The notes: a model not told the origin generated them from the sequence alone. A DNA stretch of 37,036 nt from Planctomyces sp. (GCA_005809115.1 SYLK01000433.1:1-37036); one strand, 5' to 3'; counted from the stretch's first letter, positions 17,981-34,406 are shown. A program made the numbers and translations.

Positions 17981-19087
17981 TCACGGAGCGCCAATGCCGG
18001 AAAAGAATGCCCTGATCGCAGTGACCACCGTCCCGATCTCGCTGTCGCTCAGCTCCGGATAGATTGGAAGTGACAGGATCTCATCAGCATGGCTGACTGC
18101 CACCGGAAAATCTGCAGCAGTATGCCCGAGGTAATCATACGCCTGATACAGCGGCAATGGCCTGGGATAATTGATCACCGTCGGAATGGAACGCGCTCCC
18201 AGCCAGTCGCGGAGCGAATCGCGGTGCTTCGTGCGGATGACGTACAGGTGATACACATGGCTGCCGCCACTTCTGACCGCCGGAGTGATGATGTCTCCGA
18301 CCCCCTGCAGCAGTCGGTCATAGACAGCCGCGCGGCTCTGTCGAGCGGCTGTCCATTGATCGAGGTGACGCAGTTTGACGCTGAGGATGGCCGCATGCAG
18401 CCCGTCAAGCCGGCTGTTAATGCCCTCCATCACGTGGTTTCCCTTACCACCATGCCGCGCATAAAGCGCGCTGAATTCAGCGATGTCATCACGGCTTGTC
18501 ACCAGAGCACCGGCGTCGCCCATCGCCCCCAGATTCTTCCCGGGATAGAAGCTGAACGTGGCTGCATCACCCATGGTGCCGACCGTCCGGCCTTTGTAGA
18601 CCGCCAGATGCGCCTGCGCACAGTCCTCAATGACCCACAGATTGTGACGTTTCGCAATCTCCAGAATCGGATCCATGTCGGCCGGCTGGCCGTACAAATG
18701 AACGGGAATGATTCCCCTGGTCCGGTTCGTGATCTTCGATTCGATCGCCACCGGATCGATATTGAAAAAATCGCTTTCGGTGTCACAGAAAACGACTCGT
18801 CCTCCGGCCTGAGTGATCGTCTCACTGGTGGCGATCCAGGAATTCGCCGTCGTGATCACCTCGTCTCCCGGTCGGAGTCCCAGGGCCTTCATGGCGACAT
18901 AGATCGCATCGGTGCCGTTGGCACACGAAACACAGTGTTTCGTACCGACCTTCTCAGCAAACTCCTGCTCAAACCTGTCGACGTAAGGGCCCCGCACGAA
19001 GGCCGATTCGGCAATGACCGCTGCCATCTCCTGATCAATTTCCGGCTTGATTGAGAGATACTGTGCGTAAAGATCAACGAATTGCAT
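17981..19087 (-). CDS. DegT/DnrJ/EryC1/StrS family sugar aminotransferase (WbpE/WlbC-like)
   Basis: N-terminus MQFVDLYAQYLSIKPEIDQEMAAVIAESAFVRGPYVDRFEQEFAEKVGTKHCVSCANGTDAIYVAMKALG, followed by the PLP region SFYPGKNLGAMGDAG. Confidence 0.9.
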   Translation of the reverse strand: MQFVDLYAQYLSIKPEIDQEMAAVIAESAFVRGPYVDRFEQEFAEKVGTKHCVSCANGTDAIYVAMKALGLRPGDEVITTANSWIATSETITQAGGRVVFCDTESDFFNIDPVAIESKITNRTRGIIPVHLYGQPADMDPILEIAKRHNLWVIEDCAQAHLAVYKGRTVGTMGDAATFSFYPGKNLGAMGDAGALVTSRDDIAEFSALYARHGGKGNHVMEGINSRLDGLHAAILSVKLRHLDQWTAARQSRAAVYDRLLQGVGDIITPAVRSGGSHVYHLYVIRTKHRDSLRDWLGARSIPTVINYPRPLPLYQAYDYLGHTAADFPVAVSHADEILSLPIYPELSDSEIGTVVTAIRAFFSGIGAP

Positions 19088-19104
19088 ATTGCAGAGGCCG
19101 AAGG

Positions 19105-19635
19105 TCAGAGGTTGTGCAGCCGGCGAGCCGGGTTCCCGCAGTAAGTTCCCGGTAATGTGACGTCTTTTGTCACAACACTGCCCGCACCGATCACAACGTC
19201 GTCACAGATCGTGACCGGCAGGATCGTGGCGTTCGTTCCGATCGAAACACGATGGCCGATCCGGGTGGACTTCCACTTCGTCTGATCTCCGCGAGCCGGC
19301 CCACCATCGGCGAACAGGTCGTTGATGAACATGGCTCCATGACTGATGAAACAGTCATCACCGATCGTCACCAGCTCACAGATGAACGCATGTGACTGGA
19401 TGCGGCAGCGGGCGCCAATCGTGACTCGCTTCTGGATTTCGACAAACGGACCGACAAAGCAGTGATCACCGATCCGGCATTCGTAGAGATTGCATGGCTC
19501 AACCACCGTCACGTTGTGACCGAATTCAACGTCTCGAATCGAGACCCTGAGGATGCGGGGTTCCATCGGCCTGGGGATTCTTTCGATGAGGAACAGCGGA
19601 CGTGGTACACCGTCAGGAAGCAAATGTGACGTCAT
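19105..19635 (-). CDS. Left-handed beta-helix sugar N-acetyltransferase (WbpD/WlbB-like)
   Basis: Hexapeptide-repeat region NLYECRIGDHCFVGPFVEIQKRVTIGARCRIQSHAFICELVTIGDDCFISHGAMFIND...GAGSVVTKDV...GNPARRL. An alternative start is the ATG at 19566 (MEPRILRV). Confidence 0.75.
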   Translation of the reverse strand: MTSHLLPDGVPRPLFLIERIPRPMEPRILRVSIRDVEFGHNVTVVEPCNLYECRIGDHCFVGPFVEIQKRVTIGARCRIQSHAFICELVTIGDDCFISHGAMFINDLFADGGPARGDQTKWKSTRIGHRVSIGTNATILPVTICDDVVIGAGSVVTKDVTLPGTYCGNPARRLHNL

Positions 19636-19829
19636 CCTGAGTCATTCGTGCCGGTTCAACGGACGCATTGACTGCCCGGGCTCCGGACACAGCAGGATCC
19701 TGTGTCTGTCTCCTGAAGTCAGCAATCGCGATCAGCCTGATCCCGGACGGCTGCCTGTCGCGTGGAAGTCGGCATCCTGTCCCTGCCTGACGGTCCCGGA
19801 TTGGCATCGGCGACGCGCTTCGATTCCTG

Positions 19830-20900
19830 TCAGACGCTCCTGGCGATCAGCGTATCGAGTCGAGATCTGGAGGGTACGGGATTCCAGCGAATACTTTCGT
19901 AAATTTTTTCGATGATCTCGACCGTCTTCAGGCCTTCGTAACCATTCGTGGCGATCACTCCCCCGTGCTGCAGCACATCCACCAGGTTTCCATAAACCTC
20001 GTCATGGTTCGACATGGATCCCACATAGTGTCCGTACTGATTCGCCGGTTTTCCCGGAGCCAGTCCGCTGATTTCAAAGTCCTGAATCTGCTGGTATTCC
20101 AGCTCATTCAGATACTGACCACCAATCTTCACGGTTCCCTTCTCTGCAAAAATCGTCAGCGACCCTTCCATGTTCCTCTGGTAACTGTTGATTGTGAAGT
20201 GGATCGATCCCAGAGCCCCGCTGCGGAATCGCAGCGCGACAACCCCGCAGTCTTCGAAGTCCACGGTGTCCTGGTGGCAGAAGTTGTCGGCAAAGGCCTG
20301 TGCTGAGACGACATCGCCGGCCATCCAGTACAGCAGATCGATAAAATGGCTGAACTGTGTATAAAGGCAGCCGCCATCGAGTTCCGACGTCCCCTTCCAG
20401 GGATCATTCAGGTAATACTCTGCACGACGATTCCAGAAACAGTTCAGCTGCACACTGAAGATCCGCCCCAGTCGCCCTTCGTCAATCACCTTCTTCACGG
20501 CGGCGACCGGCGGATTGAAGCGATTCTGCTTGACGACGAACAGCCGCCGATTCGCTCGTTCGGCGGCCTGAATCATGGCCCCGCAGTCATCAGCGGTCAG
20601 CGCCATCGGCTTTTCGCAAAGCACATGACATCCGGCCTGCAGAGCTGCAATTGAATGCTCGGCGTGCAGGCCATTCGGACTGCAGACGCTGACGACGTCG
20701 ATATCGCCGGCTGCGGTCAGCATCTCTGCCAGACTGGCATACGCGCAGGCCCCGTGTGGTGCCGCCATTTTCTCGGCTCGGTCCAGCACCGGGTCGCAGG
20801 TGGCCACGAGCCGTCCGAATCTGCCGACGTGTTCCGCGTGCCGGTTCGCAATGCGGCCGCAGCCCACGATGGCGAAACGCAGTGATGGTGAATCTGTCAT
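19830..20900 (-). CDS. Gfo/Idh/MocA family oxidoreductase (WbpB/WlbA-like sugar 3-dehydrogenase)
   Basis: Rossmann N-terminus LRFAIVGCGRIANRHAEH. It is adjacent to the aminotransferase and N-acetyltransferase genes. Confidence 0.85.
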   Translation of the reverse strand: MTDSPSLRFAIVGCGRIANRHAEHVGRFGRLVATCDPVLDRAEKMAAPHGACAYASLAEMLTAAGDIDVVSVCSPNGLHAEHSIAALQAGCHVLCEKPMALTADDCGAMIQAAERANRRLFVVKQNRFNPPVAAVKKVIDEGRLGRIFSVQLNCFWNRRAEYYLNDPWKGTSELDGGCLYTQFSHFIDLLYWMAGDVVSAQAFADNFCHQDTVDFEDCGVVALRFRSGALGSIHFTINSYQRNMEGSLTIFAEKGTVKIGGQYLNELEYQQIQDFEISGLAPGKPANQYGHYVGSMSNHDEVYGNLVDVLQHGGVIATNGYEGLKTVEIIEKIYESIRWNPVPSRSRLDTLIARSV

Positions 20901-20916
20901 GTGTCGGAAAAACCTG

Positions 20917-21435
20917 TCAATAGACCCGAAAAAACTCGCTGACTGGCACCTGCCAGTCAGCGACTACGTCCCCCGCATCCGGCAGATCGGATTCCTCAAG
21001 AAGTGGCAGATACCTGGATTCATCTCCGACGCTGTCGAACCGGGCACGGCTCACGAAGGCCACATCCGCCGCCAGCACCGTGTCAGGTGCCTGGGCAATC
21101 AGAAATCCGGTTTCCGCAGCAAATACCACGCCCAGATGCCGTCGCTCCAGATGGCTGCTCAGATGCCAGGCAATCCGGCTGGCCACGCGTCCATGACGAC
21201 CACCCGCCGGGGACGTCTCCCTCAAACTCCCTGCAATCAGCTCATACCGACTGGAACCCGATTCGCGACGAAACAGCTCGTCCGCTGTGATGCATCGCCG
21301 ATGAGCAATCTCGGGCGCTGTCATGACGGTCCTGGAGGCCCTGAAAAACCGGGCATGTCCCGACGTGAAATTCCGATCCCGTCCGTGCCACAATTCCCGC
21401 AGGACGCCGATGCCGTAAGTGTACTCATCAAACAC
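20917..21435 (-). CDS. Uma2 (DUF820) family putative endonuclease, apparently internally deleted
   Basis: Family N-terminal core RYELIAGSLRETSPAGGRHGRVASRIAWHLSSHL...GVVFAAETGFLI...PDTVLAADVAFVS. The tail DWQVPVSEFF is also family-like. The expected central (D/E)xK segment seems to be missing. The gaps to the flanking genes are 16 nt and 9 nt. Confidence 0.65.
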   Translation of the reverse strand: MFDEYTYGIGVLRELWHGRDRNFTSGHARFFRASRTVMTAPEIAHRRCITADELFRRESGSSRYELIAGSLRETSPAGGRHGRVASRIAWHLSSHLERRHLGVVFAAETGFLIAQAPDTVLAADVAFVSRARFDSVGDESRYLPLLEESDLPDAGDVVADWQVPVSEFFRVY

Positions 21436-21444
21436 TCGCCGCGG

Positions 21445-22233
21445 CTACTGCCTTTTTCGACAGACCTGAAAGAACTGCTCACGCAGTACGGATTCTGACG
21501 GAAAATTTACCAGCACCGCTCGGTGAACCCCGTGAAATACGAACATGCTGCCGGCCGATACCGCTGCTGCCCCGCCGTCACGGACAGCCCGAAGAAAGTC
21601 GTCGACTTTTCCGGCACCCCCGGAGGCAATCACCGGGACAGGTACTGCCGATGTCACCCTGCTGAGCAGTTCGATGTCGTATCCCAGATACGTTCCATCA
21701 CGGTCGATGGAGTTCAGCAGAATTTCTCCGGCACCCTGTTGCACGGCTGCGACCGCCGCCACAGTGGGATCAGGCTTCTGGCGGACTGTGCCACTATGTG
21801 ATCGAGTCTGGTAGCGTCCGAACCAACCCTTCCGCGCGTCAATCGAAACCACAATGCTCTGCGACCCGAACTGATCGGCTGCCGCCCGGATCAGTTCCGG
21901 CTGGCGAAACACACTGGAATTCAGAATGACTTTCTCAACACCCGACAGCAGAATGCGACGGATCTGGGCTACCGACGTGATTCCCCCACCGTACGCCATC
22001 GGCATGAAACACTCCCCGGCAATCTCCGCGATCTTTTCAAACTTCGGCTCAGAGCCGTGCCGCGACGCACCAATGTCGAGGATCGCGATTTCGTCGACTT
22101 CCTTCTCGTTGAAGATCTTGACCGTGTTAATCGGATCCCCGACATACACGGGCTTCTGAAAGCGCGCGGTCTTGACCAGACCATCCCCGCTCAGCAGCAG
22201 ACTGGGAATGACTCGGATGCGTTCCATAGGCAT
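21445..22233 (-). CDS. hisF: HisF-like cyclase subunit (HisF2/WbuZ type, acetamidino-sugar modification)
   Basis: RVIPSLLLSGDGLVKTARFQKPVYVGDPINTVKIFNEKEVDEIAILDI and IASGGAGKVDDF, which indicate the HisF TIM barrel. Its position in a glycan cluster with HisH-like and WbpG-like genes marks it as the polysaccharide paralog rather than the histidine-pathway gene. Confidence 0.88.
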   Translation of the reverse strand: MPMERIRVIPSLLLSGDGLVKTARFQKPVYVGDPINTVKIFNEKEVDEIAILDIGASRHGSEPKFEKIAEIAGECFMPMAYGGGITSVAQIRRILLSGVEKVILNSSVFRQPELIRAAADQFGSQSIVVSIDARKGWFGRYQTRSHSGTVRQKPDPTVAAVAAVQQGAGEILLNSIDRDGTYLGYDIELLSRVTSAVPVPVIASGGAGKVDDFLRAVRDGGAAAVSAGSMFVFHGVHRAVLVNFPSESVLREQFFQVCRKRQ

Positions 22234-22507
22234 CTGTAAGACTGTTTCTCACGGTCTGGCAGAACAGCCGGGATCCGTCGTGTGCGTTCCCAGGTTCGGA
22301 GGCATACCGGAGGTCATGCTTCAGATTCTGTTGCGTCGGGCTGCCAGACAGCAGGCGAAAGCTGTCGGGGTGCGGCCCCCATCCCTGACAACCGATGGGC
22401 GTCACGGCGTCAGTCAGTGTTTTTCTGGCTGCAGGATCCTGGCGCGTCGGCCTCCATGCGCGTCCGCTCTGGTGCGGAGGCACCGCTGGCTGGCCAGTGC
22501 CCGCTGA

Positions 22508-23137
22508 TTACCGGACTGTCTTCGACAGTCTCGCAAAATTTTCCAGCAGCTTCATCCCGAATCGATGACTCTTCTCCGGATGAAACTGCACCCCCCGGAT
22601 GTTTCCGCGCTGTACACCCACTGTAATCTGATATCCGTGATGAGAACTGATGATGATGTCTTCCGGGCAGGTGCACTGCAGATGGTAGGAATGGACATGG
22701 TAAAATCGGGATTCCGCCGGCAGCCCGTCGCAGAGAGGATCAGGGCGAACCACCGATATATCACGCCACCCCATGTTCGGTATCTTGTCCTCGGGTCTCA
22801 GTCGGGAGCGATCAAAGGCTGTCGTCCGCCCCGGAATCCATCCCAGTCCGGGCAACCTTCCTTCGTCGCTGCCCTCGGTCATCAGTTGCACGCCCAGGCA
22901 GATGCCGAGGATCGGGACGTGCCGCCGCAGCACGTACTCGTTCAGGAATTCCCATAACCCGGTCGCCCGCAGGTTTGCAATGCCGGTGTCAAATGAACCG
23001 ACACCCGGAAGAATCAAACTCGTGGCGCTCCCGAGCTGATTTCGATCGCCGGTAATCACCGACTCGAAACCCAGCCGCTTCAGCATGCTGCCGATCGAGG
23101 CCAGATTGCCGACGCCGTAGTCCACGACACCGATCAA
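22508..23137 (-). CDS. hisH: HisH-like glutamine amidotransferase subunit (HisH2/WbuY type)
   Basis: MIGVVDYGVGNLASI, the catalytic GICLGVQLM, and FHPEKS. The start is TTG at 23137, in a TTGA overlap with the upstream stop codon. Confidence 0.88.
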   Translation of the reverse strand: MIGVVDYGVGNLASIGSMLKRLGFESVITGDRNQLGSATSLILPGVGSFDTGIANLRATGLWEFLNEYVLRRHVPILGICLGVQLMTEGSDEGRLPGLGWIPGRTTAFDRSRLRPEDKIPNMGWRDISVVRPDPLCDGLPAESRFYHVHSYHLQCTCPEDIIISSHHGYQITVGVQRGNIRGVQFHPEKSHRFGMKLLENFARLSKTVR

Positions 23138-24318
23138 GACCGTGCCCCCAGGAGCCGCTTCACCAGCCGCACCGGCAGTCTGAGAGGACTGAGCACCGGG
23201 TAGGTTTCGAACAGCCCTCGTTCGGTTTCAAATTCCTCGTGCCGGCGCGGAGCCAGGCGCATCAGCTCCTCGAACTCATCGTGAGAAATTCCCAGTTTCT
23301 TGAGCACGAACTCCCGATCAATTTTCAGCTGATCCGGATCATAGACCGGCTTCTGCAGTTCGGTCAGTGCTTCATCACGCGTGATCTGGCCCGAGAATAT
23401 CAGATCGGACAGATGCGCCATGCGTTTGTCGATGCCGAACTTTGTCGGCAGAATGTACCCCTGATAAAATCGCGTGAAAATCGACTCGTAGTGTTTACCG
23501 CCGTAGTCGCGCCAGCCCAGATCATCCATGATCTGCTGCTTGACGCGAGCTTTATTGTACGGCACATAGTTCAGAATCGAGGTCTGTGTGACCCTGCCGA
23601 ACATCTGATACAGTTTCTTTACCTTCCAGTCCATCAGCGGATAGGTCTTCATCGGCTTCTTACCAAAAAGGCGATGAATGGCCTGAATATGGACATGGTC
23701 CGTTTTGTGCCAGATCCAGTGTGGCGGCAGTGTGCATTCGGTGACCACGTTCGTTCCGCTCAGAATATGCCTGACGCCATGCCTTGCGGCCTGCTTGTAC
23801 AGAGTCGCGAAAATCGCATGGTCGCTGACCAGTTCGATATCAACCACCGAGGCGCGGATAAACGCCAGCTGGATATCGCGAAACTCCTCCCAGTCAATCA
23901 CGTACGTGAAGAGATCGATGTCGAGTCGGCTGACGATGTTTTCAATATTCTTGACGGCCAGTTCGGAATTCCAGCCATTATCGCAGTGGACTGCCAGCGC
24001 CCGCAGTCCCAGTTCCTTCGCCAGAAGAGCCACGTAAGTGCTGTCGACGCCGCCGCTGACCCCGATCACAACATCATACGGCCGCCCCCGCCCGTCGCGG
24101 CGAATGCGGTCTACCAGTGCGTCAAGCGCTGCCTGCCGTTCGGCAGGATGCTGGACGTGCTGCGCCACGGCTCGGACATACTGCTGGTAATAATTGCACA
24201 CACCGTTGTCGTCGAACGTCATCTGCGGATCGTCACGCGTGTCCAGGACGGACATCGCACATCGGCGGTACGTCGTCCCCGCCTGCAATCCTGCATCACA
24301 GACTGTCGCCACCGTCAT
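23134..24318 (-). CDS. N-acetyl sugar amidotransferase (WbpG/WbuX/PseA-like, PP-loop ATPase)
   Basis: PP-loop GVSGGVDSTYVALLAKELGLRALAVHCDNGWNSELAVKNIENI. The likely start is the ATG at 24318 (MTVATV...), which forms an ATGA overlap with the upstream stop codon. The listed start at 24420 would overlap that gene by about 100 nt. Confidence 0.85.
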   Translation of the reverse strand: MTVATVCDAGLQAGTTYRRCAMSVLDTRDDPQMTFDDNGVCNYYQQYVRAVAQHVQHPAERQAALDALVDRIRRDGRGRPYDVVIGVSGGVDSTYVALLAKELGLRALAVHCDNGWNSELAVKNIENIVSRLDIDLFTYVIDWEEFRDIQLAFIRASVVDIELVSDHAIFATLYKQAARHGVRHILSGTNVVTECTLPPHWIWHKTDHVHIQAIHRLFGKKPMKTYPLMDWKVKKLYQMFGRVTQTSILNYVPYNKARVKQQIMDDLGWRDYGGKHYESIFTRFYQGYILPTKFGIDKRMAHLSDLIFSGQITRDEALTELQKPVYDPDQLKIDREFVLKKLGISHDEFEELMRLAPRRHEEFETERGLFETYPVLSPLRLPVRLVKRLLGARS

Positions 24319-24974
24319 TTTCCGCTTTCTGTCAGCCGATCTGCTCCGCCCTGCCGGCGAAGGTATTCGGCCTCGGTCAGATAACCTATGAATCTTCGGC
24401 GGACCGAGTGACGCACACACTGATCCGGATTCAGCGTTCGGAGTGTCTTCGCGGGATTTCCGCCAATCACCTGAAATCCCTGGGGAAAACTCCGTGTCAC
24501 CACGGCTCCGGCCCCGACGATCGTAAAATCACCGAGTTCCACACCGGGAAGGATCACCGCGTTCATTCCAATCCAGCAATACGCGCCGATTGTGACACTT
24601 CCACTGCAACGCTCGCGCAGGTCACAGGGATCGTGGTTGGCACTGATGATTCCCGCGTTCGGACCAATCTGCGTGAAATCGCCAATCGTGATTCCCCCGT
24701 ATCCCTGAATATAACATCCCTTCATCAGACCCGGGCAGACGTCGACACCGATCCGGATCTTCTCCGCGTCGTAGACCTGACTGTACTCGCTGACCGGCCA
24801 GTAAGCATCACGGTTGCCTCCCCGACCCAGAACCTTCTGCCGGAACCAGATGCCCAGATTGATCCGATTCTGATAATCGTCGGTTTCCCGAATGAATTGA
24901 AAGAACGGCAGACGAGTCAGCAGAATCTCAGGAATCCGCCACGGCCTGCGCAGCAGGAACTTCATGTTCGGCAT
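24315..24974 (-). CDS. Left-handed beta-helix O-acetyltransferase (paralog A)
   Basis: [49 protein letters not shown] lies 11 nt upstream of the ATG at 24974, whereas the listed start at 25016 overlaps the GT2 gene. It is a paralog of 31503-32261. Confidence 0.8.
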   Translation of the reverse strand: [219 protein letters not shown]

Positions 24975-24982
24975 CCGTTCGG

Positions 24983-25894
24983 CTACCTCCCGATCAGTTT
25001 TCGGAATGGGTAACACGCCAGATCATACACCAGCGCGACCAGATCGGAGGGCTCCAGACCGGCAGCGGCCGCCACGCTCTTCGCGACAGCCAGCCTGCCC
25101 GACATCAGATATCTGAGTACCCTGCGGCGACAGGCCTTTCGCTGCTGCCGCATGATTCGACCCCGATCTTCTGAGTTCAGCGGACATCGTGCGGATCGCA
25201 GCTGCGTCCAGGTGATCTCTTCATATTGCCCCAGATACTTCTCAAAGCTCGCCACTTCCTGATCACCATGTTCACGGTACCAGACAATGCCGTCCGGCAT
25301 CAGCAGGACCGGGAAGGACTCGGACAACCGCAGCCACATTTCATAGTCACTCGACATGCGACGGGCCGGAAAACCGCCCACCGCATCGAAAGCAGTGCGC
25401 GTGATCATCGCAGACAACGGCGCCTTGTGGAACAGGGGAAATCCCGTAAAGTGCCAGCGATAGGCTTCTTCCGGTGACAGGACGATCGGGAACGGTCGCG
25501 ACACATGCTGCTGCAGGGAGCACAGACCATACCCGGCCTGCGGATGTGCTTCCATCATTTCAACCAGCACCTGCAGACCGGTTGGATAGATGAAGTCGTC
25601 AGCATCCACGTACTTGAGGTACTTCCCGCGGGCCAGTGAAGCGGCTTTGTTGCGATTGGGATAGTCACCCAGATTCACATCATTGCGATGCAGGCGAACT
25701 CTCGAGTCCCTGCGGGCGTAGTCCAGGGCAATCTCACACGACCGGTCCTTCGAGCAGTCGTCAACGATGAGATACTCGAAATTCTGAAAAGACTGCGCCA
25801 GCACGCTTTCAATCGCTTCCGCCAGGTAGGCTTCGCGGTTGTAGCACGTCGTCAGAACACTGACCAGCGGGATTTCCAACGGCATCTCGACCAC
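24983..25894 (-). CDS. Glycosyltransferase family 2
   Basis: VSVLTTCYNREAYLAEAIESVLAQSFQNFEYLIVDDCSKDRS and the YVDADD (DxD) motif. Confidence 0.85.
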   Translation of the reverse strand: MVEMPLEIPLVSVLTTCYNREAYLAEAIESVLAQSFQNFEYLIVDDCSKDRSCEIALDYARRDSRVRLHRNDVNLGDYPNRNKAASLARGKYLKYVDADDFIYPTGLQVLVEMMEAHPQAGYGLCSLQQHVSRPFPIVLSPEEAYRWHFTGFPLFHKAPLSAMITRTAFDAVGGFPARRMSSDYEMWLRLSESFPVLLMPDGIVWYREHGDQEVASFEKYLGQYEEITWTQLRSARCPLNSEDRGRIMRQQRKACRRRVLRYLMSGRLAVAKSVAAAAGLEPSDLVALVYDLACYPFRKLIGR

Positions 25895-25924
25895 TCTCGA
25901 AGCAACACGGCCACGGAGGTTTTG

Positions 25925-26899
25925 TCAGGGGTTCTGACGCAAAGACTGCAGTCGGAACGGCTTACCCACAGAGCGATCGTGCAGCCGCTTCACTTCTTCA
26001 TCACCGGACTGCAGGGCCTGAAGAAAGTCGTCGATCGCCCGCCGCATGGCCTTCTGGTTTGCCAGATTAAAGCACCACCAGTGCCACCGCCTGCCGATGC
26101 TCAGCCCCGCCGGCCGCAGCAGCGAACGCACCAGCGAGAGTCTCGCGCGAAGTGTCTGCCTCGGAATCTCCGGTACCACACCAAACAGCCAGTTCCGCAG
26201 ACACAGCATCGTGACGACCCGTCTGTATGTGACCGCTTCGTCCTCCAGATGATAATGGAATACGCGGGCGGACGGATCATAGACCAGTGTATGGCCCGCC
26301 TTCAGCGCATCAATCGCCCACAGGGGATCTTCACCATAAGGAATCTCCCGAAACGGGATCTGATCCCGCAGTACCGAAGTGCGGTACATGGCAATCACGT
26401 CATCCCATGACGCCGCGTCCCTTTTCTGCCCGGGCGGCAGCGCTTCAAACTGCTCCGGCGTCTCAAACGAAAATCGCTTCGTGCGGGGCTCCGACCGAGG
26501 CCGAAACCACTCCGCAGGATTCTTGTCCGGCTCGTGGGGCACCACCTGGAGCCCGCAGACCCCGGCAACCCTGTCGCTGTCGAAGCCAGCCACCAGTCGT
26601 GCCAGCACGGATCGATCACACGCCCTGGCATCGCCCACTGTCATCAGCGTCAGCTCGCCCGTCACATGCCTCATTGCCCGATTACGAGTTGTCCCATGAT
26701 TGAACTCCGAACCAGGAATCTCGACCAGCCGGACCTTGTCATAGCCTCTGACAATCTCCAGCGTCCCGTCCGTGGAACCGGAGTCGATGACCACGATCTC
26801 TTCCACAGCGACTGACTGATTCAGCCAGCTGTCCAGGCACTCTGTGATGCCCTTCGCTTCGTTGCGGACGGGAATCACAATGGAAACGGTCGGATGCAT
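25925..26899 (-). CDS. Glycosyltransferase family 2
   Basis: VSIVIPVRNEAKGITECLDSWLNQSVAVEEIVVIDSGSTDGT. Confidence 0.85.
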   Translation of the reverse strand: MHPTVSIVIPVRNEAKGITECLDSWLNQSVAVEEIVVIDSGSTDGTLEIVRGYDKVRLVEIPGSEFNHGTTRNRAMRHVTGELTLMTVGDARACDRSVLARLVAGFDSDRVAGVCGLQVVPHEPDKNPAEWFRPRSEPRTKRFSFETPEQFEALPPGQKRDAASWDDVIAMYRTSVLRDQIPFREIPYGEDPLWAIDALKAGHTLVYDPSARVFHYHLEDEAVTYRRVVTMLCLRNWLFGVVPEIPRQTLRARLSLVRSLLRPAGLSIGRRWHWWCFNLANQKAMRRAIDDFLQALQSGDEEVKRLHDRSVGKPFRLQSLRQNP

Positions 26900-26946
26900 A
26901 ACGGGCAGCGGGCAATAAGCAGTGGGCAGTGAATCGGACCGGGATG

Positions 26947-27744
26947 TCAGATTCCGGATTCCGGGTTGTGGCCGGCGTGGAATTCCCTGAGCGCGGCGTT
27001 GAGTTCATCCGATGTGCCGATGTCAATGTAACGACCATCCGGCACGGGAAATCCTCGCACGTTCATCCCGTCGGCAAGAGCGGCGTTGAACACATCGCCC
27101 AGCACAGTTTCCCGGCCGCCAGCGTCATGCTGTGAAAGAAACGCATCCAGCAGGTTCGTGAATCGCACGGACCAGCAGCACGTACCCCACATATACTCCA
27201 GGGACGAGTTCTGCGGCTTGTCAACTGTGCTGACGACTCGACTGTCAGCATCGATCTCGACCATGCCAAACTTCTGCGGGCGATCGGTCGCAAAGAGTCC
27301 CAGGGACAGATCGGCACCAGACTGAAAGTGCTGCTCGACCAGTGTCTTCAGCGCGGTTACAGGCCGAATAATCGTGTCCGGCATGCCAAAGACAACGGTT
27401 GCGTCTCCAATCCAGGGACGTGCCAGATTTATCGCCGAAGGCATTCCGTCGAGTCGCTCCTGATAGAGGTAAGCAATCTCAAGGCCGAAACGACTGCCGT
27501 CGCCGTAATACTCGACCACGTCCTGTTTGCCCTGACCGACAATCAGCAGGATTCGCCGGACTCCTGCCTGTTTCATGTTTTCCAGAATGTACTGACTCAC
27601 CACCTTTGGCCGTTTCTCGGCCCTGCCCTTCACGATGTAGTCCTGAAAACCAATCGGAAACAACTCCTTGGCGCAGGGAAAAGGCGCCAGGCGCGTCCCT
27701 TTACCAGCAGCCGGAATAATTCCCACCGTGTCTGCATTCTTCAT
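26947..27744 (-). CDS. Sugar-1-phosphate nucleotidyltransferase (NTP-transferase family)
   Basis: N-terminal GIIPAAGKGTRLAPFPCAKELFPIG, the G-x-G-T-R-x-x-P...K-E-L motif of sugar nucleotidylyltransferases. An ATGA overlap (27741-27744) couples it to the upstream BNR protein gene. The sugar specificity is unknown. Confidence 0.8.
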   Translation of the reverse strand: MKNADTVGIIPAAGKGTRLAPFPCAKELFPIGFQDYIVKGRAEKRPKVVSQYILENMKQAGVRRILLIVGQGKQDVVEYYGDGSRFGLEIAYLYQERLDGMPSAINLARPWIGDATVVFGMPDTIIRPVTALKTLVEQHFQSGADLSLGLFATDRPQKFGMVEIDADSRVVSTVDKPQNSSLEYMWGTCCWSVRFTNLLDAFLSQHDAGGRETVLGDVFNAALADGMNVRGFPVPDGRYIDIGTSDELNAALREFHAGHNPESGI

Positions 27745-29042
27745 GGAGACAAATGCTCCGGCAAAAAGGACGCTCGCAGAAATGTATCAAACCGCTGATA
27801 ACCGGGATAAGCGCGGACACCCACGCAGATGACCTCTTTCCCGCCAGTGTTTCTCACTGCCATCGGACGCACCAGGTCATGTGCTGTGCGGCTCGAAAGT
27901 CGCGGTTCCGCGGCTTTCTGCCATTGCTGATCAATGAACGAAAACTCAGCAATCTCATACCGGCCTTCCGCGTTCTTCAGGGAGACGAGCACCACAGGCG
28001 GACTGACTGAAACGATACAGGCTCCGGCCGGGTAGCAGACAAGACCCTGACGGGCGATTTCCTGTGTGGTCCAGGTGTTGGTGGTTGAGTCCCGGTGCGA
28101 CCAGCAGACGACGGAGTCGGCGGAATCATAGTCAATCCAGATCGCGGCGAGCTGACCAGCGGGATCACGCTGCACATCCCACACGCGGGTTTCACGATCG
28201 CCCTCGGTCCGCATGACGGCAGTCAGTCCGTGAAAAAGAACCGGAAGTGTGAGGCGGCTTCCTGTTCCATCCTGCCAGGTAACGCCGCTGTCCGAACTCC
28301 GGATATGGTAGACGTCGCGAACGCGGCCCTCAACCGCCACCCCAAACAGCAGATCGACATCCGCCGTCGTTTCGTCTCCGACTGACAGTGAATAGATCCA
28401 GTCTCCGCTGATTCCTTCCCCGGGCGCAGCGTCCACCAGAACCGTTTCATCGGAAAATGAACGGCCGTGATCCTGTGACATTCGAAAACAGTACGGACGC
28501 GCACCGTCGGAATCCGTCCGGCGATAGAACAGGAGCAGCCGATCGTTTGTCGTGCAGAGGACAGGATAGGTGCTTTCTCCGTCGCAGACAACGACGGGAT
28601 CTAACCATGACGTAATGTCTCCGCTGGTCGCCGTTATGCGACTGAACATCGGGGAGTTATGCAGGCTGTAGAACACTCGCACTCGCCCCGCGTCCGGTCC
28701 GCGTGCGGGAAGATATAAAGCGGGCGGGCCATGATCGTCCAGATAATGATACTGGGCTACGACAGCAGCGAATGCCTCCCGCTCAGAAATCTGTCCAACG
28801 ACAACCTCACGACGCGATGTCATCCAGCCGGCGTAGATATTCGCCCCCGAACGGACTGCCGGCGGCGTGTTGTACCACAGGAGATTGCCTCGACCCCACA
28901 GCTCGTCGAATGAGGGTGCCGTGGTGCGCAACACGTATCCCACGGGAACCAGGATCGCAGCTGCGATGAGAACACCAGCGGTAATTCGTTTCGTATTCAT
29001 GTTCAGGAGTTCTGACACGCCCTGGCGAATCCGGGACAGCAC
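27741..29042 (-). CDS. Membrane-anchored Asp-box (BNR) repeat protein, sialidase-like beta-propeller candidate
   Basis: Two Asp-boxes are present: SQDHGRSF (nt 28455-28478) and the perfect S-x-D-x-G-x-T-W match SSDSGVTW (nt 28275-28298). An N-terminal TM helix reads ITAGVLIAAAILVPVGYVL. The likely start is the ATG at 29000 (MNTKRI). Confidence 0.55.
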   Translation of the reverse strand: MLSRIRQGVSELLNMNTKRITAGVLIAAAILVPVGYVLRTTAPSFDELWGRGNLLWYNTPPAVRSGANIYAGWMTSRREVVVGQISEREAFAAVVAQYHYLDDHGPPALYLPARGPDAGRVRVFYSLHNSPMFSRITATSGDITSWLDPVVVCDGESTYPVLCTTNDRLLLFYRRTDSDGARPYCFRMSQDHGRSFSDETVLVDAAPGEGISGDWIYSLSVGDETTADVDLLFGVAVEGRVRDVYHIRSSDSGVTWQDGTGSRLTLPVLFHGLTAVMRTEGDRETRVWDVQRDPAGQLAAIWIDYDSADSVVCWSHRDSTTNTWTTQEIARQGLVCYPAGACIVSVSPPVVLVSLKNAEGRYEIAEFSFIDQQWQKAAEPRLSSRTAHDLVRPMAVRNTGGKEVICVGVRAYPGYQRFDTFLRASFLPEHLSP

Positions 29043-29152
29043 CTCCTGACAGCGTTGTCGGCGGAGTCCTGCGAACCAGTCCCAACGCTGTCCTCAACTC
29101 CAGGGCCAACTCCTCTGCTGCGACTGGCTCAGTTCTGAGGGCCGTTCGCCTG

Positions 29153-30346
29153 TCAGGGTGCACTCCGGAGTCGAAGCAGCCAGTCGGCTGCCGTGTCGGC
29201 AATCCACGCGAATGAAGTACACGTGCCGAGGCTGCGGGCAGCCTGATGTGGCTGATAGACGAGCAGCGGCACGTATTCCCGCGTATGATCGGTTCCCGGG
29301 ACCGTCGGGTCGCACCCGTGATCACCGGTAATCACGAGCAAGTCATCGTCTGTCAGGTGATTCAGCATCTCGGGAATTGCCCGATCAATTTCCTCCAGCG
29401 CACGACCGTATCCCACCGGATCATTGCGATGACCGTAGAGAGCGTCTGTATCAACAAGGTTTGTAAAGATCAACTGGCATTCGGATTCATCCGTGGTCGT
29501 CCGCGATTCTCGCAGTGACGTCAGGTCCAGCTGATTTCGAATCGCCTGCAGAGTGAGCTGCAGCCCTTCAGCATTTCCATTGGTATGTACGGAATGCGTG
29601 ATTCCCGATCCCACGAAGATGTCGACAATCTTCCCGATCCCCAGCACCAGTCCACCCCTGTCTGCGATTCGATTCAGAACGGTGGGTTTCGGAGGTGTCA
29701 CGGCCAGATCACGCCGAGCTCCGGAAAGTCGCTTCAGGCCCATCTCTGTGCGACAATACGGCCTGGCGATGACGCGGCTGACGTTGTAATCGTCGGTCAG
29801 CAGCCCTCGAGCGATCTGGCACCAGCCGTACAGCGTTTCGAGCGGGACCACATCCGTGTTGCACGCGACCTGAAAGACACTGTCCGCACTGGTATAGACG
29901 ATGGGAAATCCCGTCGCGACGTGCCGCGGATCGAAGCGTTCGATGATCTCGGTCCCCGACGCCGGACAATTCCCGAGAATTCCCCCGCAGTCAGTTTCGG
30001 CGACAAATCGGTCCAGCAGCTCGGCTGGAAAGCCGTGCGGATACACCTGAAAGGGCTGATCCAGCACCAGGCCCGCAATTTCCCAGTGCCCTGTCGTCGT
30101 ATCCTTGCCTTTCGAGACTTCCATCATCCGTCCATAGCTGGCAAGTGGCTGAGCGACCGGAGGTACTCCCTGAACCTCGGTGATATTTCCCAGGCCGAGT
30201 GCTCCCAGATGCGGCAGACGCAGTCCCTGGCTGGCCCTTGCGACGTTACCCAGCGTGTTGCATTCCGGAATATCTCCGTAGTCCGCGGCATCCGGCAGCG
30301 CCCCGACGCCCAGGGCGTCAATCACGATGATGATCGCTCGTCGCAT
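29153..30346 (-). CDS. deoB: Phosphopentomutase
   Basis: It is collinear with E. coli DeoB from the first residues. Shared motifs include MRRAIIIVIDALGVGA, SKGKDTTTGHWEIAG, IVYTSADSVFQVAC, RVIARP and ITGDHGCDPT...GTDHTREYVPLLVY. The start at ATG 30346 fits the family N-terminus, while the listed start at 30478 adds 44 atypical residues. Confidence 0.9.
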   Translation of the reverse strand: MRRAIIIVIDALGVGALPDAADYGDIPECNTLGNVARASQGLRLPHLGALGLGNITEVQGVPPVAQPLASYGRMMEVSKGKDTTTGHWEIAGLVLDQPFQVYPHGFPAELLDRFVAETDCGGILGNCPASGTEIIERFDPRHVATGFPIVYTSADSVFQVACNTDVVPLETLYGWCQIARGLLTDDYNVSRVIARPYCRTEMGLKRLSGARRDLAVTPPKPTVLNRIADRGGLVLGIGKIVDIFVGSGITHSVHTNGNAEGLQLTLQAIRNQLDLTSLRESRTTTDESECQLIFTNLVDTDALYGHRNDPVGYGRALEEIDRAIPEMLNHLTDDDLLVITGDHGCDPTVPGTDHTREYVPLLVYQPHQAARSLGTCTSFAWIADTAADWLLRLRSAP

Positions 30347-30485
30347 CTTCAGATGACCCCCATTCGCGCCCTGGCAGCGCCTGTGACTGTCGATACCGCT
30401 GTCCTGCCGGTCCCCGGTCCGATTCGCATGACGGCCGATTCGCTTGACGGCCGGGAAAAGGGCACCTTCCGGCTGCAACCTGCGG

Positions 30486-31499
30486 CTACTGCTGCAGAGG
30501 CGCAGATGTCGGCAACTTCCACAGCAGCGAGATGGCCTGAAATATCTTCAGCTGCGATTCCACCCAGCTTCGCACAAAGGGGAATCGGATCAATCGTGAT
30601 CGACACGCCAGAACCGCTCTGCTCAGCCGCCTGAATTCTAAACCATTCAGCACGCCTGCCTCATGACTCCACTTCAACAGGTCGTTTGCCAGGTCGAAAT
30701 GTCGACCGCGCGCAGCACCGTAAACCGTTTCGCCCACCATATACCGCGCCAGACGCTTCTGACCCGATTTTCCGCTGGCTTCAAGGAGCTGAACGGCATC
30801 ACGGATAACCCGACAGCGGCTTTCCACCTTCGGGCGTGCATAAAATCCTGAGCGACTGAGACTGGAATGTTCTCGGTAGTACAGATCCGCGGGAAGATCA
30901 AAGCAGACTTTCGCACAGTAATCCTGAATCCAGGCCCGCAGAAACAGATCGATATCCTGCCAGATCGCCAGATGTTCTGCCCACATGCCGATTCTCAGGA
31001 AAGACGATTTCCTCCAGATGCAGCCGGTCCCCTGACAAATTGCGTCCTGATGAAACTGACGACTCAGCAGATCACGATCCGTGGCCACATTCCACCATCG
31101 GGCAGCGTCACCTGAGACACTGTGAAAGATCTCGCACGGAAAGACTGCCAGGTCGAGTTCTGGATGCTGCTGCATCACCTGCACGCGCTGTGACAGGCAG
31201 TGTGGAGCGAGCAGATCGTCGGTATCGAGAAAGATCAGATACTGGCCGGAACTGTGCTCGACTCCGATGTTGCGACAGGTACAGGCGCCTTTCGGTTCTC
31301 GATCACGCTCCAGCAAAGTCACGCGTGACTCAGCCGCTATGACATCGCGCATCTGCCGGAGACACGCGGCATCACTCCCGTCGTCAACGATGATCTGCTC
31401 CCAGTCCGGGTAGTCCTGCGCGCGGAGCGAAGCGAGTGTCTCCGGATACAGATCGCCACGGTTAAAACTCGGTGTGATGATCGAAATGACGGCAGCCAC
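30486..31499 (-). CDS. Glycosyltransferase family 2
   Basis: ISIITPSFNRGDLYPETLASLRAQDYPDWEQIIVDDGSD and the FLDTDD motif. Confidence 0.85.
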   Translation of the reverse strand: MAAVISIITPSFNRGDLYPETLASLRAQDYPDWEQIIVDDGSDAACLRQMRDVIAAESRVTLLERDREPKGACTCRNIGVEHSSGQYLIFLDTDDLLAPHCLSQRVQVMQQHPELDLAVFPCEIFHSVSGDAARWWNVATDRDLLSRQFHQDAICQGTGCIWRKSSFLRIGMWAEHLAIWQDIDLFLRAWIQDYCAKVCFDLPADLYYREHSSLSRSGFYARPKVESRCRVIRDAVQLLEASGKSGQKRLARYMVGETVYGAARGRHFDLANDLLKWSHEAGVLNGLEFRRLSRAVLACRSRLIRFPFVRSWVESQLKIFQAISLLWKLPTSAPLQQ

Positions 31500-31502
31500 G
31501 TG

Positions 31503-32186
31503 TCAGACCCAGAGCTTTCGCGCGCGGTAGGCTGAGAAGTCTGCAGCCCTCAGATAGCCGACGTACTCCTGGCTCAGGCAACGACGCTGACACTTTTCAG
31601 GATCCAGTCTTCGGATCAGGCGGGCCGGGTTTCCCGCCACGACGCAGTTTCCGTCCGGAAACGACTTCGTGACAATACTTCCGGCACCGACCACCGTAAA
31701 ATCACCCAGCCGCACGCCCGGCAAAATGACCGCATTCATACCGATCCAGCAATAGTCACCAATCACAACACTCTGCGTCTTATCGTGCTGGTCCGGGTCT
31801 TCAGGCAGGTGATTCGCACTGACGATTCCCACATTCTGTGCGATCCGCGTATAGTCACCGATGAAGACCTGACCGAGTCCCTGAATATAGCACCCTGGTT
31901 CATAGCCGGGACACGTATCGATCCCCACCACGATATTCTGTGGCTGGTTGATCTTGCTCGTAAAATGTACAGGCCAGTAGGCCTTTCGATTGATTCCCAG
32001 AACTTTCTGAATCAGAAATCCGGACAATGTCCTGGGCACTGGTGATTCACGCGTATTCTTCACGAAATGAAGGGGCGGCAGCCGGATGAGGGCCTCATAG
32101 AGACATCGCGCGCTGTTCCGGAACAGGAACCGGGCTGCCCGCCAGGGCAGCGTATGCAGCGGCCAGACCCGCTCAGAGAGTCGCAT
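31503..32186 (-). CDS. Left-handed beta-helix O-acetyltransferase (paralog B)
   Basis: WIGMNAVILPGVRLGDFTVVGAGSIVTKSFPDGNCVVAGNPARL. The protein aligns with paralog A along its whole length. The start is uncertain, with candidate Met codons at 32186, 32207, 32213 and 32261, all of which overlap the wzt 3' end. Confidence 0.75.
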   Translation of the reverse strand: MRLSERVWPLHTLPWRAARFLFRNSARCLYEALIRLPPLHFVKNTRESPVPRTLSGFLIQKVLGINRKAYWPVHFTSKINQPQNIVVGIDTCPGYEPGCYIQGLGQVFIGDYTRIAQNVGIVSANHLPEDPDQHDKTQSVVIGDYCWIGMNAVILPGVRLGDFTVVGAGSIVTKSFPDGNCVVAGNPARLIRRLDPEKCQRRCLSQEYVGYLRAADFSAYRARKLWV

Positions 32187-33525
32187 ATCGGGTAATACTG
32201 CTGTCATTGTCATGCATCGGCGAGTAATCAATCTGCCAGTCAAATCGAGGATGGATGGCACCGGCAGGACGGGCTGAATGTGTCAGGCCCAGATGATTCA
32301 CAGTCAGCTCATCCACGTAAAACGCAACGTCATGGCCTGCCACAAGGGAGGCTGTCAGCGGAATGTCGATGTCCACACTGACCACATACTTGCCAATGTT
32401 CAGGAAGTGTGCCGGAATAGTGACAGAACTCACGTAGCTTCCCGGTGCTCGCATCCGGTCCGCCGCCTGATGGTTGAAGTCACTTGTCGAGAGTACCAGA
32501 CTGCCGTCCTGCGCCGACAGATTCACGGAAACCCTGAGACTTCGGATCGAATTCACTATCGTGTAGCGAACTTCCACGCGCAGTGAGTCAGACGTCGACA
32601 GTCGCGTATCACAACGGCCCAGCGCGTCCACAACTGATACAGCATTCAGCCGCACGCCGCCCTTTGACGGTTCCTGCCCGGCCGGAAACGTCAGAATTCG
32701 TTCAGCCCCGCTGCCGGCCGCGAGATACCTGTCAATGATGTCAGAGGTGACCCCGGCGGAATCCAGAGTCCCATTGACCAGCAGGCAGCTCTGCCGACAC
32801 AGTCGGCGAATCGACGCCATGTTATGACTCACGAACAGGATCGTTCGCCCGGATTCACGACTGACGTCTTCCATCTTGCCGATGCAGCGAGTCTGAAAAT
32901 CGGCGTCCCCGACGGCCAGGACTTCATCGACGATCAGGATCTCCGGTTCCAGGTGAGCTGCCACCGCAAATGCCAGCCGCACATACATTCCGGATGAATA
33001 TCGCTTCACCGGTGTGTCAATGTATTTCGCACAGCCGGAAAACTCCACGATCTCATCAAATCGCCGACGAATATCGGACCGAGTCATCCCCAGAATCGCA
33101 CCGTTCAGATAGATATTCTCGCGCCCGGTCAATTCGGGGTGAAATCCTGTTCCGACTTCCAGCAGGCTCGCCATTCGCCCGCGAACACGGATTCGCCCGG
33201 TTGTCGGCGCGGTGACTCGAGACAGCAGTTTCAGCAAAGTCGATTTGCCGGAACCATTCCGGCCTATGATTCCCAGGATCTGACCCTGCTCCACCTGCAG
33301 ATTGATGTCCTTCAGCGCCCAGACGTAGTCAGACACCGCGGAGCGAGAGGCGGGAGGCAAAGAAGCGACGGTACGATCATTCACCTGCCACACGCGGGCA
33401 AATGGATCGTCCTTCCCCCGGAATCTGGCCCACCAGCGGTTGAGATCGTGCGCAATAGTGCCCGTGCCCACCTGACCCAGGCGGTACATCTTGGAGACAT
33501 TTTCAATGGAGATCGCGGTGCTCAT
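32173..33525 (-). CDS. wzt: Polysaccharide ABC exporter ATP-binding protein with a C-terminal glycan-binding-type extension
   Basis: Walker A GRNGSGKST, signature YSSGMYVRLAFAVA and Walker B ILIVDEVLAVGD. A further ~190 aa of beta-rich sequence (RLNAVSVVD...VEVRYTI...VSVNL...) occupies the position of the Wzt C-terminal domain. Confidence 0.9.
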   Translation of the reverse strand: MSTAISIENVSKMYRLGQVGTGTIAHDLNRWWARFRGKDDPFARVWQVNDRTVASLPPASRSAVSDYVWALKDINLQVEQGQILGIIGRNGSGKSTLLKLLSRVTAPTTGRIRVRGRMASLLEVGTGFHPELTGRENIYLNGAILGMTRSDIRRRFDEIVEFSGCAKYIDTPVKRYSSGMYVRLAFAVAAHLEPEILIVDEVLAVGDADFQTRCIGKMEDVSRESGRTILFVSHNMASIRRLCRQSCLLVNGTLDSAGVTSDIIDRYLAAGSGAERILTFPAGQEPSKGGVRLNAVSVVDALGRCDTRLSTSDSLRVEVRYTIVNSIRSLRVSVNLSAQDGSLVLSTSDFNHQAADRMRAPGSYVSSVTIPAHFLNIGKYVVSVDIDIPLTASLVAGHDVAFYVDELTVNHLGLTHSARPAGAIHPRFDWQIDYSPMHDNDSSITRYATL

Positions 33526-33623: not shown

Positions 33624-34394
33624 TCATTCACGGACTGAAACGGACACGTTGCCGACGGACCTGGCCGTCATCCAGCAGGCACGCAGGATATCGCGGGTCG
33701 CGCCGTGCAGTTCCCGCAGCTTCTGCAGCGCCTCTTCGGACAGAGGACCGCGATGAGGCAACAGCACCTGACACTGCAGGCATCGGGCGGACTCGTTGAA
33801 ACCAGTATCCGACAATCGCGACGCGCCGCCGGTCAGACGCCCCAGGAGCCCCCCGTCCTGCGTTTCGTCGCCGGCGGGAGGTACCACGACAGCCCCGAGT
33901 CCATTGAAGATCGAATACAGCAGGGTCGCTTCTTCACCCGTGGGCTTCTGCAGATGCGCCAGCACATACTGCCAGTTTTCACCGGCCTCGGCGGACGACA
34001 GTGAATGTATTGACCGCCGCGTCACTTTCCAGCCTGTGGCTGTATAGCACTGCGTCAGTTCGTGCCAGCCCATAAAACCAACCTGATCGAACGCCACCTG
34101 AACCTGCAGCGAATCTCTGCGGACTGACCAGGAATGACTCCAGCCAAACATCCCGGGCACATCGGCCTGCTGCGGCTCAATGAAGGACACGACAGTCCAG
34201 CCATTGATCGTGTCCGGCAGCACCGTGCGAGACAACCGAATGTCCCCCCGCCCCGGACCCGCACAGGTTGCACTCCCGGCGACACCGAAATACCGCGCCG
34301 CGGCCTGGGCCGCGATCATCAGCCCCACAATCAGGAGAATGACGCGGGTGGAGCCTCCGGATGAATTCGCAGCCTCAGACATCGTCGACACCAT
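33624..34394 (-). CDS. EpsI-family-like (exosortase-associated) protein with an N-terminal membrane anchor
   Basis: The TM anchor is RVILLIVGLMIAAQAAA. It is followed by LPDTINGW and WHELTQCYTATGW, which fits the H-x4-C-x4-GW pattern I associate with EpsI proteins. The protein is clearly paralogous to aa ~370-540 of the exosortase ORF. Confidence 0.55.
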   Translation of the reverse strand: MVSTMSEAANSSGGSTRVILLIVGLMIAAQAAARYFGVAGSATCAGPGRGDIRLSRTVLPDTINGWTVVSFIEPQQADVPGMFGWSHSWSVRRDSLQVQVAFDQVGFMGWHELTQCYTATGWKVTRRSIHSLSSAEAGENWQYVLAHLQKPTGEEATLLYSIFNGLGAVVVPPAGDETQDGGLLGRLTGGASRLSDTGFNESARCLQCQVLLPHRGPLSEEALQKLRELHGATRDILRACWMTARSVGNVSVSVRE

Positions 34395-34406
34395 CCGCGA
34401 TTCCGG

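Follow-up and report, generated by a model that had tools for sequence, protein, structure and literature searches.

We identified a free-standing EpsI-like gene, here called gene X, inside an ABC-type glycan export operon of Planctomyces sp. (GCA_005809115.1 SYLK01000433.1:1-37036; the window, that is, the whole stretch of DNA analysed, comprises 37,036 nucleotides, nt). The gene separates wzm, which codes for the permease of the exporter, from wzt, which codes for its ATPase. Judging from profile and alignment evidence, its product belongs to a separate, free-standing branch of the exosortase U (XrtU) C-domain family, is remotely related to EpsI, and recurs in other Planctomycetota close to wzm and wzt. 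We tentatively favor the idea, which is far from certain, that X supplies an EpsI-type function in trans at the exporter and in this way ties glycan export to the handling of PEP-CTERM proteins.

Genes wzm, X and wzt are all located on the minus strand (Table 1). An earlier note on this DNA had described a gene of 256 amino acids (aa) separated from wzm by 12 nt and from wzt by 98 nt, and the listing of open reading frames (ORFs) confirmed this arrangement; the two spacers occupy 34395-34406 and 33526-33623, respectively, and translation of X is probably coupled to that of wzm. The translation of X contained the motifs LPDTINGW and WHELTQCYTATGW, with His111 and Cys116 numbered as the note had them, and the genes on both sides, described there as the subunits of an ABC exporter, were recognized by PF01061 and PF00005, respectively. 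Their best NCBIfam matches (Wzm/RfbD and Wzt/TagH) were below the equivalog cut-offs, and the Wzt_C domain (PF14524) matched the window's wzt product with 27.4 bits, under the gathering (GA) cut-off of 30.4, with a similarly weak match in the L007 orthologue. The flanking pair is an ABC-2 permease and an ABC ATPase, encoded in one operon of a glycan cluster rich in glycosyltransferase (GT) genes. The 98-nt spacer contains a 7-nt unit repeated perfectly in tandem, GCTGACT x 4.1 (AGTCAGC on the coding strand); the repeat stops 1 nt short of the wzt start codon and occupies the place expected for a ribosome-binding site. This repeat is unique in the window (3 overlapping matches versus 0.02 expected) and is missing from homologous loci; it could be a candidate slip-strand site tuning wzt translation.

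The X protein is organized as one N-terminal membrane helix followed by an alpha/beta domain of ~210 aa, which is predicted to be periplasmic. The signal-anchor helix proposed previously corresponds to a hydrophobic helix at residues 17-36 (VILLIVGLMIAAQAAARYF, Kyte-Doolittle 1.96), and it spans residues 14-35 in the AlphaFold2 model. Only ~16 residues precede this helix, and a cytoplasmic output domain is absent. Profile alignments paired the helix with the last membrane helix of fused XrtU proteins (e.g., P0071 327-549). X is a real gene and not a chance ORF, because more than 60 representative clusters of full-length free-standing homologs were found and the ratios of nonsynonymous to synonymous substitution rates (dN/dS) were 0.22-0.34 in comparisons with three orthologues; these ratios point to purifying selection on X.

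Family searches placed X with the C-terminal domain of exosortase U. The NCBIfam model NF033780 (exosort_XrtU_C), whose curated cut-off is 40 bits, matched X with 139 bits (E=1.3e-40) over model positions 2-170 of 173, and it also matched all 62 free-standing relatives chosen as representatives (62/62). No matches of X to PF09721 or TIGR02602 were detected in the Pfam/NCBIfam scan. X has the NF033780 domain and lacks the exosortase domain, and therefore shares the domain family without being an exosortase U. Besides NF033780, DUF3485 (PF11984) was the only family that recurred among the 62 relatives, 18 of which matched it at E<0.01 (best E 3.5e-5), and TIGR02914 (EpsI_fam) was matched by two of them. 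X itself matched DUF3485 with E=0.0037 and EpsI_type_B with E=0.046.

The X family was further compared with six XrtD exosortases with fused EpsI domains, which are encoded on Rhodobacterales plasmids, and with a protein of Isosphaera pallida plasmid pISOP01 annotated as "exosortase-associated EpsI family protein". An hhalign comparison of the X family with these domains gave E=8e-4 with both motifs in register: LPDTINGW of X aligned on FPREIAGW of the XrtD domains and on LPLQVGNW of the Isosphaera protein, and WHELTQCYTATGW aligned on HSPEVCLPVGGW, which the XrtD proteins, as canonical EpsI domains, carry at this place. The corresponding segment of the Isosphaera EpsI is HDPQFCYPLAGY. The pattern H-x4-C-x4-GW had been given as an EpsI pattern in the earlier note, and both HSPEVCLPVGGW and HDPQFCYPLAGY match it; on these alignments, it is the true EpsI motif, and X is a remote EpsI homolog, related via the XrtU C-domain family. 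The proposal that X is EpsI-like was upheld by NF033780, by the 18 relatives matching DUF3485 and by the hhalign comparison; X itself scored 17.4 bits for DUF3485 and stayed below the GA of 26.1.

In the 2006 paper that defined EpsI, it is a protein "with no known function" whose gene is adjacent or fused to that of the exosortase EpsH (PMC1569441). In the literature on EpsI/exosortase, XrtU, DUF3485 and anammox bacteria or Planctomycetes, we found no functional or structural study of EpsI. All public copies of the X clade that were seen are unnamed or annotated as "hypothetical protein" and have no precomputed Pfam domain. There is, then, an annotation gap, in that the sole model that recognizes X proteins bears the name of an exosortase U domain.

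When 1.84 billion representative proteins were searched exhaustively with the profile, 1272 matches at E<=0.001 were obtained. The top ~70 matches were free-standing proteins of ~225-290 aa, and from ~E=1e-31 downward the matches were proteins of 535-645 aa with the domain at the C-terminus. In a neighbor-joining tree of 195 extracted domains, one clade contained 70 free-standing and 0 fused members. Short sequences outside this clade scattered among the fused ones and look like gene fragments or split XrtU genes (e.g., L088 1594-2235). Multiple alignment of the 62 free-standing representatives showed that ten residues (W89, D103, Q104, W110, H111, L113, C116, Y117, Q207 and Q209) are invariant at a mean column identity of 25%; P60 and W66 were invariant in one alignment (A1) and nearly so in another (A2). 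Most fused XrtU domains also kept the WHELTQCYTATGW-type motif. Of the 62 free-standing relatives, 49 had a strong hydrophobic helix at the N-terminus, and most of those without it appear to be N-terminally truncated gene calls. All nameable hosts of the domain belong to the Planctomycetota, with free-standing members in Planctomycetaceae, unclassified Planctomycetota and Kuenenia, and fused members mainly in Pirellulaceae and Mariniblastus.

These conservation data bear on one alternative, namely that X is a decaying, functionless fragment of a duplicated XrtU gene that landed between wzm and wzt. X is paralogous to the C-domain of the exosortase encoded in the window, and split XrtU genes do exist (L088 1594-2235 and L034). 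Against such an origin stand the dN/dS values, the pure 70-member clade with its invariant residues and retained N-terminal helix, the conserved linkage to wzm in Planctomycetaceae and Kuenenia, and the fact that X fits NF033780 better than the fused copy does (139 versus 89.8 bits). We consider this explanation extremely improbable; the conservation data effectively refute it.

We then turned to gene neighborhoods. Loci were gathered by exact-protein look-ups, a scan of GTDB species genomes and a scan of JGI metagenomes, for which an 11-sequence alignment served as the query; they were annotated with profiles of X, Wzm, Wzt and the exosortase N-domain, and identical proteins were collapsed. 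In 19 distinct loci, X was found on the same strand as wzm and within 9 kb of it, in three arrangements (Table 1). The triplet wzm-X-wzt occurred in six other distinct loci and is therefore recurrent, a point on which the earlier note had let its proposal stand or fall. This position is confined to closer relatives, 38-79% identical to the window's X, but more distant ones are located upstream of wzm. The X-wzt spacing in the other triplets varied from a 4-nt overlap to 78 nt. In the group typified by L013 and L064, a GDP-mannose 4,6-dehydratase gene often came just before X and a GT4 transferase gene just after it. The order wzm-X-wzt is a feature of one subclade, and the conserved property is co-orientation with, and proximity to, wzm/wzt in a glycan cluster. 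The linkage to wzm was kept in both Planctomycetaceae and Kuenenia.

The window also codes for an exosortase system, which includes a PEP-CTERM protein (its C-terminal end is ...VPEPGSVAILSLGAVGLIAAGYRRRRNRTTV / VPEPGSVAILSLGAVGLIAAGYRRRR), an XrtU-type exosortase with a fused EpsI-like C-domain and a TPR protein. These three genes are in divergent orientation beside the far end of the glycan cluster, and the exosortase, the nearest one to X in the window, is ~30 kb away from it. The C-domain of this XrtU matched NF033780 with 89.8 bits (residues 377-543) and shared 22% identity with X (E=2e-9). In its degenerate motif (WQLIQHSYVREGW), Gln and Ser stand in for His111 and Cys116, respectively, and elsewhere in the domain Leu stands in for Gln207; the structural Trp, Tyr and Gly-Trp residues are retained. 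Close full-length XrtU relatives mostly kept both His and Cys, with P0164 and P0169 lacking the Cys. At 45-55% identity to the N-domain of the window exosortase, many relatives are no longer than 310-390 aa and have no C-domain, and each short relative examined was followed by a TPR protein of ~725 aa, orthologous to that encoded at 3611-5806 of the window. Such exosortase and TPR genes recurred together in L088, L089 and L093 and are a conserved pair. In the lineage of the window's XrtU, the fused module has been repeatedly degraded or lost, and the free-standing copy retains every invariant residue.

A second contig, JAWKTZ010000011.1, carried X, wzm and wzt at ~130 kb (L013), and three exosortase/TPR pairs and a PEP-CTERM gene at ~175-186 kb, directly after a GT2 gene. 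Among these exosortases, a short one without C-domain, P0257, was the closest match on this contig to the N-domain of the window's XrtU (46% identity). On the same contig (L088 538-2235), a gene for a 339-aa short exosortase was followed, after 37 nt, by an ORF of 213 aa (1594-2235). This ORF matched the X profile with E about 1e-26 and kept HDLTVCYTNIGW, and the N-terminal helix was absent; it looks like part of a split or frameshifted XrtU gene and not like a member of the wzm-linked clade, and L034 showed the same pattern. Yet another arrangement was found in Isosphaera pallida pISOP01 (L082 1709-6459), where a free-standing EpsI gene is followed by a gene for a tyrosine kinase (PCP-like) and then by a short exosortase gene. 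Thus, in this organism, also a planctomycete, a glycan-export component sits between EpsI and its exosortase.

On the favored reading, X, which belongs to a free-standing, monophyletic branch of the exosortase-U C-domain/EpsI-like superfamily, would be a bitopic protein of the inner membrane, anchored by its helix and with the alpha/beta domain in the periplasm, and would presumably be co-transcribed with the Wzm-Wzt exporter. It would most likely act on the periplasmic side of the membrane, at the exit of the lipid-linked glycan, and may contact Wzm and Wzt there; the earlier suggestion of an accessory subunit or adaptor of the transporter is plausible as a mechanism, and X may be made in stoichiometric amounts with the transporter and hand the glycan to the exosortase system, as also suggested there. 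Acting in trans, X would replace the module that exosortases normally carry fused or have encoded in an adjacent gene, and the cluster's glycan export would thereby be tied to the processing of its PEP-CTERM protein by XrtU. In favor of this reading are the family and motif evidence, the linkage to the exporter in 19 loci, the exosortase systems in the window and on JAWKTZ010000011.1, and the fused copy of this XrtU, which has lost the His, the Cys and one Gln.

Several observations weigh against this reading. The window does have an XrtU system, but no exosortase gene was detected at a distance of 10 kb or less from any X of the free-standing clade. The exosortase link is therefore indirect and rests on two contigs. 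XrtU homologs with intact domains were found away from any glycan cluster; for one of them, P0165, no glycan cluster was found nearby. One X locus, L011 (from a Kuenenia stuttgartiensis metagenome-assembled genome), was without wzm despite 10 kb of downstream sequence; it was the sole wzm-less locus among those with at least 5 kb downstream, the other wzm-less loci ending sooner. Finally, the N-terminal helix of X could be a cleaved signal peptide (c-region AQAAA) and not an anchor.

The main rival is a role confined to the exporter, in which X is an exosortase-independent accessory of Wzm-Wzt, either a periplasmic factor whose Cys/His site, for example, transfers, releases, trims or caps the lipid-linked glycan, or a small adaptor linking the exporter to later steps in the envelope. 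Homology to the exosortase C-domain would then reflect shared handling of a glycan or lipid carrier and not a partnership. The conserved neighbors of X fit such a role, since they are wzm/wzt, sugar-nucleotide and GT genes and never an exosortase within 10 kb, with GDP-mannose dehydratase - X - GT4 as a recurrent core, and so does the location of intact XrtU genes away from glycan clusters. In addition, no WaaL-type ligase, Wzy, PCP or OPX genes were detected in the window's cluster, which leaves a periplasmic handling step without an assigned gene. The weak structural neighbors of X described below (Apa, SciW, LpqN, PsbP and START) are ligand- or helix-binding alpha/beta folds, but these matches were non-significant. 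It also counts against this explanation that all other known homes of the domain superfamily are fused to or beside an exosortase (PMC1569441 and the loci analysed here), and that the glycan cluster with X is bordered at its end by exosortase/PEP-CTERM modules in both the window and JAWKTZ010000011.1. We regard a role independent of exosortases as possible, though rather unlikely.

The AlphaFold2 domain model of X (pLDDT 82.6, pTM 0.82) consisted of seven strands, a short helix bearing His111 and Cys116, a disordered loop and a long C-terminal helix. The conserved site is composed of D-Q ... H-x4-C-x4-GW and two Gln residues on a later strand. A Foldseek search of the PDB with two X models (pLDDT 73 and 83) found nothing with E<0.001, and TM-scores did not exceed 0.43; only the weak neighbors Apa, SciW, LpqN, PsbP and START were seen (E >= 0.006). 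A profile search of PDB sequences with the X family gave zero matches at E<=1. In the PDB, then, the X fold has no significant solved relative and therefore gives no mechanistic hint, a further point against the favored reading. An adaptor of the PCP, KpsE or Wzz type was considered and rejected, as X had no Pfam/NCBIfam PCP match, no PDB sequence match and no significant Foldseek match. A role in a defense system was likewise rejected, with no match to PADLOC.

Another explanation is that X is a sensor or regulator, which binds the exported glycan or the PEP-CTERM tail and tunes the transporter or the exosortase, with His and Cys in a non-catalytic role. A single membrane helix with a small periplasmic domain would suit this task, the Foldseek searches with the X models found no likeness to any enzyme fold, and exosortase loci are already multi-component, with dedicated TPR partners. 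Yet with only the short segment ahead of the helix, X lacks a cytoplasmic output domain, and a His/Cys/Asp/Gln set that is invariant across 62 divergent members is easier to reconcile with a chemical site than with a binding surface. We therefore view a purely sensory role as improbable.

A bolder reading can also be considered, although we hold it to be doubtful: EpsI-type modules may be the acceptor-handling half of the exosortase machine, and in this planctomycete clade the module may have been transferred out of the exosortase gene into the Wzm-Wzt operon. Undecaprenyl-linked glycan would be captured by the module on leaving the transporter, the invariant His/Cys site would help to join PEP-CTERM proteins to this glycan, and exosortases with a lost or degraded EpsI domain would depend on the stand-alone copy. 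If this were true, exosortase sorting would amount to protein-to-polysaccharide ligation in physical connection with ABC export. Since the PEP-CTERM/exosortase proposal of 2006, the function of EpsI and the target to which exosortases attach their substrates have both been open questions. A free-standing EpsI-like clade wired into an ABC exporter suggests that what the module handles is the exported glycan or its lipid carrier, and names candidate residues (His111 and Cys116) and partners (Wzm, Wzt and XrtU). The recurring pairing of X and the exporter across Planctomycetota offers a testable clue that EpsI-type modules may link glycan export to surface-protein sorting.

The glycan cluster headed by wzm-X-wzt extends over 29 kb on one strand. 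It contains genes for GT2 and GT4 transferases, acetyltransferases, a phosphopentomutase-like metalloenzyme, an NTP-transferase, a WbuX/HisH/HisF2 acetamidino module, an aminotransferase, an FkbM methyltransferase and a carbamoyltransferase. The gene order after wzt that is common to the window and L001 is GT2c, phosphopentomutase-like metalloenzyme, NTP-transferase, GT2b and GT2a; several of the same genes follow wzt in L005, where a WbuX-like gene has a different position. The pair of metalloenzyme and NTP-transferase genes was kept beside wzt in L001 (the L005 sequence ends inside the metalloenzyme gene), which hints at an unusual, possibly pentose-derived, nucleotide sugar. The acetamidino-sugar module is accompanied in the cluster by a BNR_4 beta-propeller protein.

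Additional observations concern small genes in and around the cluster. Two genes of the nucleotidyltransferase fold (AbiEii-like and NTP_transf_5-like) are located upstream of wzm in the window, and their homologs were present upstream of X in L006, L011, L015, L016, L064/65, L073 and L074; these genes appear syntenic with the cluster start. A Uma2-family (putative restriction endonuclease-like) gene was found within the glycan operon. Other Uma2 genes were found between wzm and wzt in L095 (8412-9711) and upstream of X in L006 (688-1239). The Uma2 gene may be a small mobile or selfish element prone to insert in such clusters.

Table 1. Features of the window and arrangements of X relative to wzm and wzt in the loci collected
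Feature	Position or number	Strand	Evidence or remarks
Gene X, 256-aa ORF, ATG start	33624..34394	-	NF033780 match at residues 62-241; free-standing EpsI-like protein
X, N-terminal hydrophobic helix, residues 17-36	34287..34346	-	Predicted membrane anchor or uncleaved signal
X, LPDTINGW, residues 59-66	34197..34220	-	Conservation of P60/W66 and hhalign to EpsI
X, WHELTQCYTATGW, residues 110-122	34029..34067	-	Contains invariant His111 and Cys116
wzm, ABC-2 permease, 305 aa	34407..35324	-	PF01061, 67 bits; best NCBIfam matches Wzm/RfbD and KpsM
wzt, ABC ATPase with C-terminal extension, 450 aa	32173..33525	-	PF00005, 81 bits; best NCBIfam matches TagH and Wzt/RfbE
GCTGACT tandem repeat	33527-33555		
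Glycan biosynthesis genes on the same strand, downstream of wzt	6178..32261	-	
Acetamidino-sugar module WbuX/HisH/HisF2, BNR_4 beta-propeller protein, and phosphopentomutase-like metalloenzyme/NTP-transferase pair	21445-24420, 27741-30478	-	
Uma2-family gene	20917-21435	-	
Two nucleotidyltransferase-fold genes	35335-35907, 36213-36716	-	AbiEii-like, NTP_transf_5-like
PEP-CTERM substrate protein	793..1527	+	PF07589 and TIGR02595 matches
XrtU-type exosortase, 551 aa, with fused EpsI-like C-domain	1847..3502	+	8TM_EpsH, 126 bits; PF09721
XrtU, degenerate motif WQLIQHSYVREGW, residues 423-435	3113..3151	+	
TPR protein (PrsT-like), exosortase partner	3611..5806	+	TIGR02917-like and TPR matches
Arrangement wzm-X-wzt	7 distinct loci		Window, L001, L005, L007, L008/9/62, L061, L063
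Arrangement with X 28-150 nt upstream of wzm	7 distinct loci		L002/3, L012, L014, L016, L068, L070, L095
Arrangement with X upstream, 2-9 kb of glycan genes before wzm	5 distinct loci		L013, L064/65, L066/67, L071/74, L072

X was also compared with known systems. With the C-domain of exosortase U, X shares NF033780 over its full length, the pattern W-H-[ED]-L-[TS]-x-C-Y-x3-G-W, the positions of D103, Q207 and Q209, and a membrane helix that precedes the domain; in contrast to exosortase U, X is a separate 256-aa gene product without the exosortase catalytic domain, forms its own clade and has wzm and wzt as neighbors. With EpsI (TIGR02914/DUF3485; XrtD and the EpsH-EpsI system of Methylobacillus), X shares an N-terminal helix and a periplasmic domain, the latter predicted in X, and the motifs [LF]P-x4-W and then H-x4-C-x4-G-[WY] in the same order and register; it differs in that it is sub-threshold on EpsI profiles and is not encoded next to, or fused with, an exosortase. 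The Isosphaera pISOP01 EpsI gene is located two genes upstream of the exosortase, with the tyrosine-kinase (PCP-like) gene between them.

On the export side, the likeness to KpsE/PCP adaptors is limited to topology, in that a periplasmic protein with a membrane anchor is encoded together with an ABC glycan exporter, as X is far smaller, has no detected sequence or fold similarity to them and has no OPX partner in the window. The exporter itself resembles the Wzm-Wzt, TagGH and KpsMT systems, which likewise combine an ABC-2 permease with a C-terminally extended ATPase in a glycosyltransferase-rich cluster. In the Wzm-Wzt systems described to our knowledge, wzm and wzt are adjacent or overlapping and an EpsI-like third component is absent, whereas here a conserved third gene is inserted between the two or prefixed to them. 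On the sequence evidence, what is new here is that an EpsI-like module has the genes of an ABC glycan exporter as its conserved genomic partners.

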